NCBI GenBank assembly: GCA_020631905.1
Contig: JACKGQ010000001.1
Span: 549,854 to 613,853, forward strand
Direction of reading: 5' to 3'
DNA length: 64,000 nt
DNA from: Candidatus Nomurabacteria bacterium
Lineage (GTDB): Bacteria; Patescibacteriota; Saccharimonadia; Saccharimonadales; VXPC01
The notes under the pieces are model-generated. The model was given only the letters and a program-made list of their open reading frames with translations. It was not told where the DNA came from and made no database searches. Position numbers and translations under genes: made by a program. This document shows positions 13,591 through 16,686 of the stretch, in pieces; position 1 is the stretch's first letter; every line of letters starts with the position of its first letter.

Positions 13591-14127
13591 CTACTGGCCA
13601 ACTGCAAACTTGCATGCATCTAGCAATAAAAACATATCAGACACAAACAGACTATCTGGCAAGAGTAGGCCCCCTAAGTCTTGATCTTCTTCGGGGTCTT
13701 CGCTTAAGTATAGCCAATCGATGATTTCTAGCTCGACTTCGCCGATTGCGTTGATAGTTAGCTCGCCGATGCCACGCGACACATCGACTTTCCGATCATC
13801 CACGTCTATGCGATAAGATGTCATATGGCCGGCAGTACGCATCAGAATTAGACTTTCATCATCCGACTCGCTGGTAGGCATTCTATCGTCTGGCTCGAAG
13901 ATTACCAGCTCGATTGTGCTATAAACTGCACCACTCGAGCGGACTACGCTTCGCCCGAGTTTGATGTACCGGAATTTGTTGTCGCAGATTTCCAAGACAT
14001 CCCTGATCCGCTCTGTAGTTGCTATCGGACCAAACTTATCTTCTGTTAAAGCAATTGCTCGATCAATAAAATCAGACATTTCTGCCTCGGTTACTTCTCG
14101 GTCAATTGTATGGGGTAAATCAGACAC
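13591..14127 (-). CDS. Hypothetical acidic protein (orphan)
   Basis: 178-aa ORF. No motif recognised. Confidence 0.4.
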   Translation of the reverse strand: MSDLPHTIDREVTEAEMSDFIDRAIALTEDKFGPIATTERIRDVLEICDNKFRYIKLGRSVVRSSGAVYSTIELVIFEPDDRMPTSESDDESLILMRTAGHMTSYRIDVDDRKVDVSRGIGELTINAIGEVELEIIDWLYLSEDPEEDQDLGGLLLPDSLFVSDMFLLLDACKFAVGQ

Positions 14128-14259
14128 CAGATTAGTTCTTTACCAAAGTATGGTTTTTCATGGTTATTCAGATTTTATCATATAATTAATATTATAATTT
14201 TGACAAAACCTACATTTAAAATTATTTTATGTTCAGAATAACTCTAAGACAGGATTATT

Positions 14260-14616
14260 ATGGAAAAACGTAATGTTAGCAGATATTTATTGTCGATGAT
14301 TCCATTTTTATTTATGGTAGCGGCATGCGGTGACGATGAACGAAGTGTTGATACTGCGGAACAAATAACCCAAAACGATGGTGAAACGCCACAAGTAAAG
14401 GCTACTTACTATCCTAACGGAATTCGAGTTTTAAGTTTTTTTAATGACCAGGAAAACTACGCAGATATTATTGAATTTTGCGACGGTAATGATTTAGTCG
14501 AGCAAACTGCGCTTTCGACATATGGTAGTGGTGCCGCAGGCAATGCAATCGCCAGAACCATTGATCACCCTGCCTGCCTTGACGGCATGCTTACACCAAG
14601 CGACTTTGAAGTTTAG
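14260..14616 (+). CDS. Putative lipoprotein
   Basis: 118 aa. Signal peptide ending in the lipobox-like FMVAAC-G. Confidence 0.6.
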   Translation: MEKRNVSRYLLSMIPFLFMVAACGDDERSVDTAEQITQNDGETPQVKATYYPNGIRVLSFFNDQENYADIIEFCDGNDLVEQTALSTYGSGAAGNAIARTIDHPACLDGMLTPSDFEV

Positions 14617-14712
14617 TAGATATAACTCTACATCTCAAACAAAATTTTTATATTTTGAATCATAGCTGTATGCTTCTATTACGCACGCCCCCTGAGAGTT
14701 AGGAGAACAAGC

Positions 14713-14901
14713 GTGATCGCACTTAACCACAACTATTCCTTGACGGTCTTGGTCGGCAATTTAGTTCTATTGAGCATTGTCTTGGCTATGCTGGTTAGGC
14801 AGTTCAATCCAAGCAGCAGCACCCACAAACCGTATCCAGCAGGTAGCCGGGTTCGGGCAGTGTTGGCGCTGGTTGTCTTGTTGCTTCTGATCATTACATG
14901 A
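14713..14901 (+). CDS. Small hydrophobic (two-TM) protein
   Basis: 62 aa. GTG start 7 nt after an AGGAG SD, two hydrophobic segments, and a hairpin plus U-rich tract downstream (14938-14997). Confidence 0.35.
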   Translation: MIALNHNYSLTVLVGNLVLLSIVLAMLVRQFNPSSSTHKPYPAGSRVRAVLALVVLLLLIIT

Positions 14902-14937
14902 TCATCATTCTGGCAGAAATTGTTGTGGTCCTCTGGT

Positions 14938-14997
14938 CCTCGACCTGGTAGTAGCCGCCCGCAAGGCAGAGCTCTCGAATGGTCGAGGGCTTTGTCT
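14938..14997 (+). terminator. Possible intrinsic terminator after the small membrane ORF
   Basis: 8-bp stem CCTCGACC (14938-14945) / GGTCGAGG (14981-14988) with a large structured loop, followed by GCTTTGTCT. Confidence 0.35.
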
Positions 14998-15017
14998 ATA
15001 AAGAGACTATCCATGCA

Positions 15018-15046
15018 TTGACTATATATTGTGTTTATGGTAATAT
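15018..15046 (+). promoter_or_regulatory. Strong sigma70-type promoter for the ABC-F leader
   Basis: TTGACT (15018-15023), 17-nt spacer, TAATAT (15041-15046). Confidence 0.6.
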
Positions 15047-15081
15047 CTTAATTAATCATATAAAAAGGAGTTATTACACCG

Positions 15082-15105
15082 ATGATTTACCAGATCAACA
15101 GCTAA
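15082..15105 (+). CDS. Candidate regulatory leader peptide (MIYQINS)
   Basis: ATG 15082 is preceded by AAAGGAG (15064-15070). Seven codons then TAA, positioned between the promoter and the terminator hairpin upstream of an ABC-F gene. Confidence 0.45.
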   Translation: MIYQINS

Positions 15106-15162
15106 TTCACACCAACAGTGTAGCTTTGCTATTGATCTATATCATCTAACCCCTTTTTCTTT

Positions 15163-15211
15163 AACCGAGCACGGTGTGAGTCGCTGACAAACATACAAGT
15201 GCTCGGTTTTT
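15163..15211 (+). terminator. Intrinsic terminator / attenuator in the ABC-F leader
   Basis: Perfect 10-bp stem AACCGAGCAC (15163-15172) / GTGCTCGGTT (15199-15208) followed by a T-run to 15211. The alternative pairing TCACACC (15107-15113) with GGTGTGA (15173-15179) could act as an antiterminator. Confidence 0.65.
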
Positions 15212-15225
15212 GCGTTGGAGGCAGT

Positions 15226-16686
15226 ATGCTCGAACTTGCACATATCTATAAAACACTCGGAGACAAACTAATTCTTCAAGATATTAACCTCGGTATCGAC
15301 CATGAGGTTGTTGCTCTAATTGGCAAAAATGGCGCCGGTAAATCTACATTATTGCAGATTATACTTGGCCAGATTGAGGCCGACGAAGGCACCGTAAAGT
15401 ATCGTGGTGCAGTCGGCTATGTCCCCCAGCATCCACAGCTTGCCAATACTGTAGGAGGCTGTTTTGGCTCGGTCGAGTCTTGGCAAGCCGATATTGCTAT
15501 GGCAGAAGTTGGCCTAGAAAAGTCGTTAACTTTCCCCACGTCTAAGCTAAGCGGTGGTCAAAAAACCAAGCTTGCGCTAGCTATGGTTTTGGCCCAAGCA
15601 CCACGACCAAGTATTTTGTTGTTAGACGAACCAACCAACAATCTAGATGCAACCGCTTTACGATGGCTAGAAGACTATATAAAACATTTCAAAGGCCTGG
15701 TAATACTAGTGAGTCACGACCGGTCGTTTATCAACCGCACATGCACCAAAGTATTACTACTTGAGGCAACAAAGCTAACTATATATAAGGGCAATTACGA
15801 TGATTACAAATCTCAAAAAGAGCTAGAGCTACAACATCAATTGCTCGAGTATCAATCAAACCTCGACGAAAAGAAAAGGCTCAATAGCTTACTCCAAGCC
15901 AAAAGTCAGCAGATGCAAGCAACCAGTAATCAGTGCTATAACAAGCTCATGGGCATACCCAAAATAAGTTTTAATACCAACAAGAATGCTTCGCAAACTA
16001 ACACAGGCCGGCAAATCAAAGCCATAAATTCACGTATCGAGCAGCTTGCAAGTCTAGAAAAACCAGACATAGCCAAAGATTATCTGCTCGAACTAAATGG
16101 CGCCGTGCGCGGTGGTAAGTTGGTGGTTAAGCTCGACAATATTAACGTAGATTTCCTACCCAAAGTTAACAACTTTTGTCTCGAGATTCGTGGTCAGCAG
16201 CGAGTTGTAGTAGTTGGTCCAAATGGTTGTGGCAAGACAACTCTGCTGCGAATAGCCCATCGAAGCATCACTCCTAGCAGTGGTGTGGTTGTTGTCGGCG
16301 CAGGCATATCGATTGGTTATATCTCACAAGAAGTTAGCGGACTCGATTTTAGCTTATCGTCGTTCGAAAACTTGCTTCAGTCAAACTCAGACAGAACGGT
16401 TATCCATCGCCAGGCGCGTGCACTCGGTCTAGAAGCAGCTGCTCTTGGTCTAAAACCAAACGAGTTATCGCGTGGCCAGCAGAGTAAGCTTAGTTTTGCC
16501 AAACTGCTACTCGGCAACCACGATCTACTAATTCTAGACGAGCCAACTAACCACTTAGACATCGCTACTCGGGATAGCATCGAACATGCACTCGAGCTAT
16601 ATCGTGGGGCTATGCTAGTCGCCTCTCACGACGAATACTTCTTAGAGTCTATTGGTATTACTCAGACAATCAGCTTGATGTCTTAA
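15226..16686 (+). CDS. ABC-F family ATPase (ARE-like ribosome-protection type, two ABC domains with linker)
   Basis: Two Walker A sites (GKNGAGKST, GPNGCGKTT), two signatures (LSGGQ, LSRGQ), about 80-aa Q/K-rich interdomain linker, and no TM domain. Start moved to ATG 15226 (GGAGG SD 4 nt upstream), because the track start 15199 lies inside the terminator stem. Confidence 0.85.
   Translation: MLELAHIYKTLGDKLILQDINLGIDHEVVALIGKNGAGKSTLLQIILGQIEADEGTVKYRGAVGYVPQHPQLANTVGGCFGSVESWQADIAMAEVGLEKSLTFPTSKLSGGQKTKLALAMVLAQAPRPSILLLDEPTNNLDATALRWLEDYIKHFKGLVILVSHDRSFINRTCTKVLLLEATKLTIYKGNYDDYKSQKELELQHQLLEYQSNLDEKKRLNSLLQAKSQQMQATSNQCYNKLMGIPKISFNTNKNASQTNTGRQIKAINSRIEQLASLEKPDIAKDYLLELNGAVRGGKLVVKLDNINVDFLPKVNNFCLEIRGQQRVVVVGPNGCGKTTLLRIAHRSITPSSGVVVVGAGISIGYISQEVSGLDFSLSSFENLLQSNSDRTVIHRQARALGLEAAALGLKPNELSRGQQSKLSFAKLLLGNHDLLILDEPTNHLDIATRDSIEHALELYRGAMLVASHDEYFLESIGITQTISLMS

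Follow-up and report, generated by a model that had tools for sequence, protein, structure and literature searches.

In the trp leader of Escherichia coli, RNA segments pair as 1:2, 2:3 and 3:4, and a ribosome at the stop codon masks segment 2. In the Bacillus subtilis vmlR leader, the upstream open reading frame (uORF) MIN acts by start-codon stalling within an anti-antiterminator/antiterminator/terminator scheme (PMC9226507), and the uORFs of cplR and vga(A) are further precedents (PMC12121999). Lincosamides, pleuromutilins and streptogramin A hold ribosomes on the start codon and are inducers of vmlR, vga(A) and cplR (PMC9226507, PMC12121999), and tetracycline and retapamulin trap ribosomes at start codons as well (PMC12121999). 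In streptococcal msrDL-msrD, a six-residue peptide with a UAA stop precedes a terminator and an antibiotic resistance (ARE) ABC-F gene, and a ribosome arrested at the stop codon physically blocks the adjacent terminator (PMC10314930). The short uORFs of E. coli toiL and actinobacterial whiB7 are coupled to RNA refolding and may answer several inhibitor classes (PMC12121999). Here, we describe the leader of an ABC-F gene at 15,018 to 16,686 of a 64-kb stretch of contig JACKGQ010000001.1 from a Candidatus Nomurabacteria bacterium (the whole stretch is called the window).

A short-uORF leader in front of an ABC-F gene

We favor, with somewhat better than even confidence, the reading that this leader is a ribosome-dependent attenuator of the anti-antiterminator/antiterminator/terminator type that controls an ARE-like ABC-F gene, and that it represents a leader family found across Saccharibacteria and their relatives. 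Its parts are as follows, with SD for Shine-Dalgarno sequence and MFE for the minimum free energy fold.

15018-15046, + strand: promoter, with -35 TTGACT at 15018-23, a 17-nt spacer and -10 TAATAT at 15041-46
15038-15046, + strand: extended -10 by direct reading, TGg ahead of TAATAT
15062-15074, + strand: SD region of the uORF as 5' strand of helix P0, partner 15146-15159 in the MFE fold
15064-15070, + strand: uORF SD AAAGGAG, by direct reading
15082-15105, + strand: leader uORF MIYQINS, 7 codons plus stop, from ATG at 15082 to TAA at 15103-15105
15092-15102, + strand: 5' strand of helix P1 (putative anti-antiterminator), AGAUCAAcAGC, in uORF codons 4-7, partner 15128-38 in the MFE fold
15105-15113, + strand: segment alpha, touching the stop codon, partner alpha' at 15173-81
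15109-15112, + strand: local alternative for alpha, with GUGU at 15118-21
15120-15138, + strand: box GUAGCUUUGCUAUUGAU, with the 3' strand of P1 towards its 3' end (15128-38)
15146-15159, + strand: linker CUAACCCCUUUUUC, the 3' strand of P0, predicted to sequester the uORF SD
15163-15172, + strand: lower stem of the terminator, 5' arm AACCGAGCAC
15173-15181, + strand: segment alpha' GGUGUGAGU, in the upper stem of the terminator (with 15192-96) or in the long-range helix with alpha
15199-15211, + strand: terminator 3' arm GUGCUCGGUU (15199-208) with U-run at 15207-11
15218-15222, + strand: ABC-F SD GGAGG
15226-16686, + strand: ABC-F gene, 486 amino acids, ATG at 15226

An earlier note on this DNA, made from the letters alone, had proposed the TTGACT-17-TAATAT promoter, the SD with the mini-ORF MIYQINS, a pairing of 15107-13 with 15173-79, and a 10-bp terminator stem with a T-run (15163-15211) ending 15 nt before the ABC-F start. 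Promoter and mini-ORF were found where it had placed them. TCACACC (15107-13) and GGTGTGA (15173-79) are exact reverse complements, and the terminator stem is likewise correct: AACCGAGCAC (15163-72) pairs perfectly with GTGCTCGGTT (15199-208) over 10 bp, followed by a T-run to 15211. The stated distance of 15 nt to the ABC-F start also holds. Transcription is predicted to start near 15053. On its own, the promoter match (9/12) is at chance level, with 17 such sites against 13.3 expected in 7 kb; a TTGAC(N)-17-TA(N)AAT promoter with TG stands at an equal distance from the uORF at six relatives (L081, L084, L088, L090, L092 and L094). Homologous loci also carry a GGAG counterpart of the ABC-F SD 4-7 nt ahead of the start codon.

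Compared with vmlR, and with vga(A), cplR and lmo0919, the locus has the same layout: an Arm-less ARE-type ABC-F gene preceded by a short uORF enclosed in a hairpin (the anti-antiterminator), with a predicted intrinsic terminator a few nucleotides upstream of the SD of the gene. The same three states appear in our folds, and induction would be expected from ribosomes trapped at or near the start codon, as reported for those systems (PMC9226507, PMC12121999). However, there is no sequence or Rfam relationship to vmlR, the leader is missing from 80 ABC-F loci outside the candidate phyla radiation (CPR), and the uORF has 7 codons rather than 3. The putative antiterminator takes the upper half of the terminator hairpin and not the lower 5' arm, the leader is shared with genes other than ABC-Fs, and some copies have a leaderless uORF.

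The position of alpha, 0-4 nt past the stop codon, resembles that of segment 2 in the trp leader, and in our computations a stop-codon ribosome masks alpha while an earlier stall frees it. Unlike the trp leader, the uORF has no run of a single codon and probably senses ribosome blockage rather than the supply of charged tRNA, and the counterpart of the 2:3 helix overlaps the terminator only in its upper part. The msrDL leader resembles ours in its very short peptide (6 versus 7 residues), its UAA stop and a terminator before an ARE ABC-F gene (PMC10314930), but the terminator here lies ~60 nt from the stop codon, where a ribosome would favor termination. In contrast to toiL, which uses occlusion of the ribosome-binding site and Rho, we find a canonical hairpin with a U-run. 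Like the uORFs of toiL and whiB7, this one may be part of a broad sensor; the mixture of genes behind the leader would fit such a role. Functionally, the leader would fall within the known class of uORF-dependent attenuators of resistance genes.

Conservation and covariation of the leader

Seven homologue loci were picked by protein identity alone (P0002, P0003, P0004, P0010, P0011, P0050 and P0103). Their ABC-F proteins are 45-53 % identical, the leader was at the same place in 7/7, and the DNA similarity of the seven leaders was well above what this protein identity would lead one to expect. Further copies came from a metagenome scan with a leader DNA pattern; after chance matches were removed, there were ~31 distinct leaders in all, in which the promoter, uORF, both long-range helices and terminator recur in register. 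A covariance model built from 27 leaders was run over the window and loci L001-L099. It found one copy in the window (15062-15217, 108.9 bits) and matched all CPR loci among those searched, while 0/80 ABC-F loci from other phyla carried the leader. These 80 loci (27-34 % identity) came from a genome-contig scan with the ABC motifs DEPTNNLD and ILDEPTNH, which was uninformative as a test of leader conservation, as it returned only ABC-Fs of other phyla; they were reused as negatives.

In a plain MAFFT alignment, standard pairs occupied 88.1 % of cells across P1, alpha:alpha' and the terminator stem, compared to 32-43 % when partners were slid by 1-3 columns, and 0/500 shuffles reached the observed covariation score. 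Across 27 leaders, P1 was paired in 87 % of cells, with 3 pairs changed on both sides, and the terminator stem in 96 %. The alpha:alpha' helix, whose pairing the earlier note had seen in this one sequence, proved to be the best supported, with many compensatory changes across relatives: it was paired in 81.5 % of cells on the unrefined alignment, with 4/7 pairs changed on both sides. In every leader, alpha starts 0-4 nt past the stop codon and alpha' abuts the 5' arm of the terminator, and the pairing is kept in at least eight sequence versions of alpha / alpha', listed here.

UCACACC / GGUGUGA
CACACGG / CCGUGUG
CACACUUA / UAAGUGUG
AGUAGUCGCAC / GUGCGACUAC
UCACACGAAU / AUUCGUGUGA
GUUGUCGCAC / GUGCGGCAAC
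GAUGUCACGC / GCGUGACAUU
GAUGUACcGCAA / UUGCGUACAUC

Cognate alpha:alpha' duplexes had a mean energy of -16.3 kcal/mol, compared to -6.9 +/- 3.0 for shuffled sequences and -11.4 with partners from other leaders. For the window, the cognate duplex (-13.9 kcal/mol) ranked 1/29 against a non-cognate mean of -5.8 kcal/mol. On this comparative evidence, the alpha:alpha' helix is real and is the most informative helix of the leader. We regard the leader itself as a conserved, covarying RNA family and not a chance arrangement, and its conservation as the decisive evidence that it is real.

The box GUAGCUUUGCUAUUGAU was nearly invariant in the alignment, although P1 needs only its 3' half; most leaders were fetched with a pattern containing part of this box. 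A stretch within it, AGCUUUGCU, might fold into a small separate hairpin or serve as a site of contact or pausing. The box occurs only once in the 64-kb window, where there is no second leader copy.

The uORF across the family

Each of the 31 leaders has an ATG followed by a stop codon in frame, usually UAA. The uORF has 6-8 codons, and exactly 7 in 29/31. The peptides mostly follow M-x-x-x-I-N-S/N/R (typically MIDLINS, MTDQINN, MTDHINN, MRGIINS or MATYINN), with MIVISR and MIRIARAK as outliers. In 17 leaders an SD stands 11-12 nt upstream of the uORF. The other 14 have no SD, and their -10 hexamer ends 6-8 nt before the uORF ATG, the spacing to be expected of a leaderless start; the uORF of these leaders is probably read from a leaderless transcript. 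Since the reading frame is kept while the mode of initiation swaps between SD and leaderless, there is strong evidence from this comparison that the uORF is translated.

Several details of the uORFs are recorded here. The SD-to-ATG spacing of 11-12 nt holds for the window as for the other SD-type leaders, compared to the usual 3-5 nt for the ABC-F gene. The 30 nt before the ATG contained no SD in L111, L125, L130, L131, L132, L135, L143, L151, L163, L174, L178, L185 and L194. In leaderless-type copies with a kinase, APH or MFS gene downstream, peptide position 2 was Thr or Ala in 12/12, compared to mostly Ile in ABC-F leaders. The outlier MIRIARAK belongs to a leader of a 496-residue ABC-F subgroup (L094, 1357-1383) that keeps P1, alpha:alpha' and the terminator with different sequences; the peptide ends in R-x-K, a motif type linked to macrolide-dependent arrest (PMC12121999).

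Fold of the window leader

The transcript 15053-15240 (188 nt) folded at -57.6 kcal/mol, compared to -36.7 +/- 4.0 kcal/mol for shuffled sequences (z = -5.18; 0/200 shuffles as stable). The MFE structure has two domains. In the first, a long hairpin surrounds the uORF, with P0 pairing 15062-74 with 15146-59 and P1 pairing 15092-102 with 15128-38. The second is the terminator hairpin, in which the apparent 26-nt loop folds into an upper stem (15174-78 with 15192-96). The stem 15163-72 / 15199-208 and the upper stem together gave -20 to -23 kcal/mol and are followed by UUUUU, as expected of a terminator. Because of the apparent 26-nt loop, this terminator was absent from a simple terminator scan with a loop limit of 8 nt. 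Support for the P0 helix is modest: in the 17 SD-type leaders, the pairing of GGAGUU with UAACYYC had a mean of -7.0 kcal/mol compared to -5.0 kcal/mol for shuffled sequences.

A search of 14000-16000 on both strands against Rfam 15 (E <= 10) returned no family, only a chance miRNA match within the coding region (15428-98). TTCTTT at 15157-62, ahead of the terminator, was noted by eye as a possible NusG-type pause motif (TTNTTT) and dropped, as it is not kept in other leaders. Just upstream of the promoter there is an 8-bp GC-rich inverted repeat, CCTCGACC / GGTCGAGG (14938-14945 and 14981-14988), followed by a T-rich stretch, which may be the terminator of the preceding small genes.

A predicted switch that follows the ribosome

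The proposed mechanism is drawn throughout from sequence and folding. Transcription would begin near 15053, and the 7-codon uORF (15082-15105) would be translated. A ribosome reaching the stop codon would hide alpha (15105-13) under its footprint, which extends to about +15 nt from the P-site codon, and after its release P1 (15092-102 with 15128-38), closed by P0, would refold. Either way, alpha' (15173-81) would form the upper stem of a long terminator hairpin, and the polymerase would halt at the U-run (15207-11). With a ribosome held on codons 1-2, or up to about codon 4 in most relatives, P1 would be blocked and alpha exposed. Drugs expected to produce this state are those that trap ribosomes at the start codon, namely lincosamides, pleuromutilins, streptogramin A and tetracyclines; more broadly, on this model any agent that keeps ribosomes on codons 1-4 should induce. 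Alpha would then capture alpha' as it emerges, so that the upper stem is lost. The leftover 6-8-bp stem, with a loop of ~24-28 nt tied into another helix and through alpha to the stalled ribosome, would be a poor and slow terminator, allowing read-through. The ABC-F would then probably protect or rescue drug-blocked ribosomes.

Folding of nascent transcripts was simulated with transcripts ending just before the terminator 3' arm, with a ribosome masking positions -12 to +15 relative to the P-site codon (toeprints at +16 by convention, as in PMC9226507) and with alpha:alpha' counted at 6 bp or more. The helix formed as follows.

No ribosome, SD-type leaders: 0/17 (P1 wins)
No ribosome, leaderless-type leaders: 8/14
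P site on codon 1 or 2: 31/31
P site on codon 3: 28/31
P site on codon 4: 25/31
P site on codon 5: 15/31
P site on codon 6: 4/31

A ribosome at the stop codon covered alpha in 31/31 leaders, so that formation of alpha:alpha' depended on ribosome position as 0/17 (SD-type leaders with no ribosome), 31/31 (early ribosome) and 0/31 (ribosome at the stop codon). For the window leader, the helix appeared only with the P site on codons 1-2. Making alpha' unavailable weakened the CCGAGC...GCUCGG hairpin from a mean of -17.3 to -8.9 kcal/mol, and from -20.4 to -12.7 kcal/mol in the window. Natural intrinsic terminators have a median loop of 4 nt (PMC12207403). The weakest step of the model is antitermination itself, which we infer to be a kinetic "loop capture" in which alpha ties up the 5' half of the upper stem while the lower stem stays intact.

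Several results weigh against this attenuator model. The pattern that retrieved about 24 of the 31 leaders prescribed the box and the terminator core, which inflates the apparent invariance of both; this bias does not extend to the variation in alpha, alpha' and the uORF. The 5' arm of the terminator has no conserved upstream partner: its best upstream duplexes were no better than those of shuffles and were inconsistent in position, which rules out a classical antiterminator that pairs with this arm. Nested MFE folding of the full leader preserved the terminator under every ribosome mask. This rules out an equilibrium switch, and the switch must therefore be kinetic. The alpha:alpha' helix abuts the lower stem with an overlap of only 0-3 nt and does not invade the 10-bp stem, and relief of the terminator, as the earlier note had it, is therefore still something that we infer. 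The helix and the lower stem together would make a sterically possible H-type pseudoknot, in which termination might survive. For the 8/14 leaderless leaders that formed alpha:alpha' with no ribosome, repression would depend solely on ribosomes that get as far as the stop codon. Finally, the strict I-N-S/N/R ending could reflect a peptide-dependent arrest at the stop codon that masks alpha and follows a different logic.

That last point leads to a termination-arrest sensor, in which the ribosome arrested at the stop codon, and not the early-stalled one, is the inducing state. MsrDL (MYLIFM) works in this way (PMC10314930), uORF length and C-terminal residues are strongly conserved here with UAA as the usual stop, and the R-x-K of MIRIARAK in L094 is of the kind linked to macrolide arrest (PMC12121999). 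However, part of the constraint on the I-N codons comes from their pairing with the invariant box, a stop-codon ribosome covers alpha in 31/31 leaders and would lead to full terminator folding, i.e. repression, and the terminator ~60 nt downstream is out of reach with no other conserved competitor. Because arrest at the stop codon would mask alpha and favor termination, we rank an msrDL-type mechanism below early-stall attenuation and consider it improbable. We assign a similarly small probability to alpha:alpha' being no antiterminator at all; the helix would then coexist with the terminator as a pseudoknot that aids termination, or would govern the stability of the RNA or its translation after read-through, and the leader would mainly report whether or not its uORF is being translated. 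The 0-3 nt overlap with the lower stem is a typical geometry for coaxial stacking, and the terminator is the thermodynamic winner in all conditions, but that hairpin is strong unaided (-14 to -23 kcal/mol) and needs no helper. In addition, alpha' is used by the upper stem, which makes the two pairings mutually exclusive there. The place of alpha just past the stop codon also matches segment 2 of trp-type attenuators.

Two further explanations dispense with ribosome sensing altogether. The box GUAGCUUUGCUAUUGAU, conserved beyond its pairing needs, and the strong structure (z = -5.18) are what a riboswitch-like RNA that binds a ligand, protein or tRNA might show, with the "uORF" untranslated and merely the 5' strand of a helix. 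This is hard to reconcile with an ATG and in-frame stop in 31/31 leaders at a fixed length and with SD or leaderless promoter spacing, with no Rfam match at E <= 10, or with downstream genes that are diverse drug-resistance types rather than one pathway, and we see only a slim prospect for it. We give the least credence, next to none, to a housekeeping ABC-F behind an unregulated 5' untranslated region, with elements that came together by chance or a hairpin that terminates the gene upstream. Many promoter-like matches nearby are at least as good as this one, and the gene is the sole ABC-F seen in the 64-kb window; against these points stand the conservation, covariation and z-score of the leader, a hidden Markov model that groups the protein with ribosomal-protection ABC-Fs, and a neighborhood that differs in every relative, unlike that of a core gene.

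The ABC-F protein

The 486-residue protein matched Pfam ABC_tran twice and ABC_tran_Xtn, with a helical linker and no membrane domain. NCBIfam NF000355, "ribosomal protection-like ABC-F", matched at 394.8 bits (cut-off 380) in a single alignment over residues 2-478, while housekeeping models matched in fragments, with Uup at 246, EttA at 238, YbiT-type at 229 and YheS-type at 171 bits. The earlier note had named clustering with the housekeeping EttA, Uup and YbiT as the outcome that would speak against its view, and the profile scores (394.8 vs 171-246 bits) point the other way. None of the named ARE subfamilies (Vga, Msr, Lsa, Sal, CplR, OptrA or the producer type) accounted for the protein, since all specific models scored far below their cut-offs. 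Next best after NF000355 were Vga (293 bits, cut-off 725), CplR (270/780) and Msr (260/680), with Lsa at 211/750. By these scores, the ABC-F is in no named ARE subfamily.

Among solved structures, the best sequence matches were VmlR2 and VmlR; the alignment with VmlR covers residues 5 to 476. The AlphaFold (AF2) model, with a confidence score (pLDDT) of 87.5, has linker helices at 191-234 and 246-275 joined by an 11-residue tip; this 85-residue helical hairpin aligns end to end with the linker of VmlR and is slightly longer. Only 40 residues separate the Q-loop Q68 from LSGGQ108, so there is no Arm insertion, and there is no C-terminal extension. Loss of the Arm is most drastic in ARE1 and ARE2 (PMC6723617). 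In common with VmlR/VmlR2, Vga(A), Lsa(A), Sal(B) and PoxtA, the protein has twin ABC domains, no Arm and a long linker of two helices joined by a tip loop, with TM-scores of 0.75-0.80 to AREs solved on the ribosome, but it is only 24-28 % identical to them, has no C-terminal extension and falls in a CPR-specific clade. A structure search leaned only slightly towards AREs and did not decide between ARE and housekeeping proteins, as TM-scores overlapped (AREs 0.73-0.80, with VmlR2 and LsaA at 0.80; YbiT 0.75; EttA and Uup 0.67-0.70).

The protein, which is identical to a database entry from a Candidatus Saccharibacteria genome, heads a large clade of 486-511-residue proteins, 45-54 % identical, from Saccharibacteria and other CPR bacteria, and no second ABC-F was found within the 64-kb window. 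With its twin ABC domains and no Arm, the ABC-F appears ARE-like, and its profile scores and best PDB sequence matches place it closer to ribosomal-protection than to housekeeping ABC-Fs. The earlier note had suggested an inducible ribosome-protection factor. The NF000355 match, the missing Arm and the conserved, covarying leader favor this view; the protein lies outside the named vml, msr, vga and lsa families, and relief of a terminator stays a prediction.

Other genes behind the leader

Besides ABC-F genes, including that of the window, the leader precedes genes for a P-loop kinase, an APH-family kinase, an MFS transporter (L135) and one protein with no recognizable family (L133). The P-loop kinase (164-166 amino acids, Pfam AAA_33, no specific family) lies directly behind ten distinct leaders (L111, L114, L125, L130-L132, L143, L174, L178 and L194). 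The same kind of kinase also occurs right after, and overlapping, the ABC-F gene (L081 4466-4996, L084 4466-4996, L088 2982-3455 and L092 2967-3455); its size across both settings is 157-176 amino acids. The APH-family kinase stands behind the leader at L151 and L185 and adjoins an ABC-F gene at L094 (2988-3926) and L090 (325-1242). Its homology to hygromycin-B 4-O-kinase is clear (1e-39 to 3w0m), and it scored 140 bits on the APH(4)-Ia model, below the cut-off. The leader-driven genes and those downstream of ABC-F genes belong to the same families, the kinases being 36-51 % and the APHs 42 % identical. Sharing of the leader with a hygromycin-kinase homologue, an MFS pump and a kinase would be as expected of an antibiotic-responsive control element.

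The AAA_33 kinase is a candidate for a new drug-modifying enzyme. An identity like that of chloramphenicol phosphotransferase was considered for it and was unsupported, with generic P-loop kinase matches only. ABC-F-kinase fusions apparently exist (P0006, 650 amino acids; P0037, 685 amino acids).

The surroundings of the ABC-F gene differed in every relative and included a serine recombinase, BREX genes, a MacB-type pump and tRNA genes. These varied contexts suggest accessory, movable, island-like cassettes rather than a core translation factor. As to individual positions, leader-gene cassettes lie directly after tRNA genes at L088 (~1110-1200), L092 (~1210-1295) and L194 (just upstream of the promoter), beside a serine recombinase at L081 (4979-6406) and beside BREX brxA/brxB at L084 (1-1062).

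Implications for Saccharibacteria and relatives

To our knowledge, regulation in Patescibacteria/CPR is almost unexplored. Saccharibacteria are ultra-small epibionts on Actinobacteria (PMC10633639), and a review of CPR resistance genes makes no mention of ABC-F (PMC8651080). We found no paper describing the leader element and no Rfam family for it. What appears to be new is a leader-RNA family confined to Saccharibacteria and their relatives, its modular use ahead of at least four gene types with SD-led and leaderless versions of one sensor, and a putative antiterminator that acts on the loop side of the terminator hairpin. We tentatively raise the possibility, which we hold to be rather less than even, that these elements make up a CPR-specific translation-stress regulon, in which a portable RNA module senses blocked ribosomes and, by loop capture, switches on an ABC-F, an APH, an MFS pump and an AAA_33 kinase of a new antibiotic-modifying class.

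The mechanistic stake is whether capture of the loop side of a terminator suffices to stop termination, which would be a simple design for natural and synthetic RNA switches. The leader also provides a search handle, as any gene behind it, the AAA_33 kinase family included, becomes a candidate resistance determinant. If the attenuator reading is right, these epibionts would keep an inducible defense against ribosome-targeting compounds despite their small genomes.

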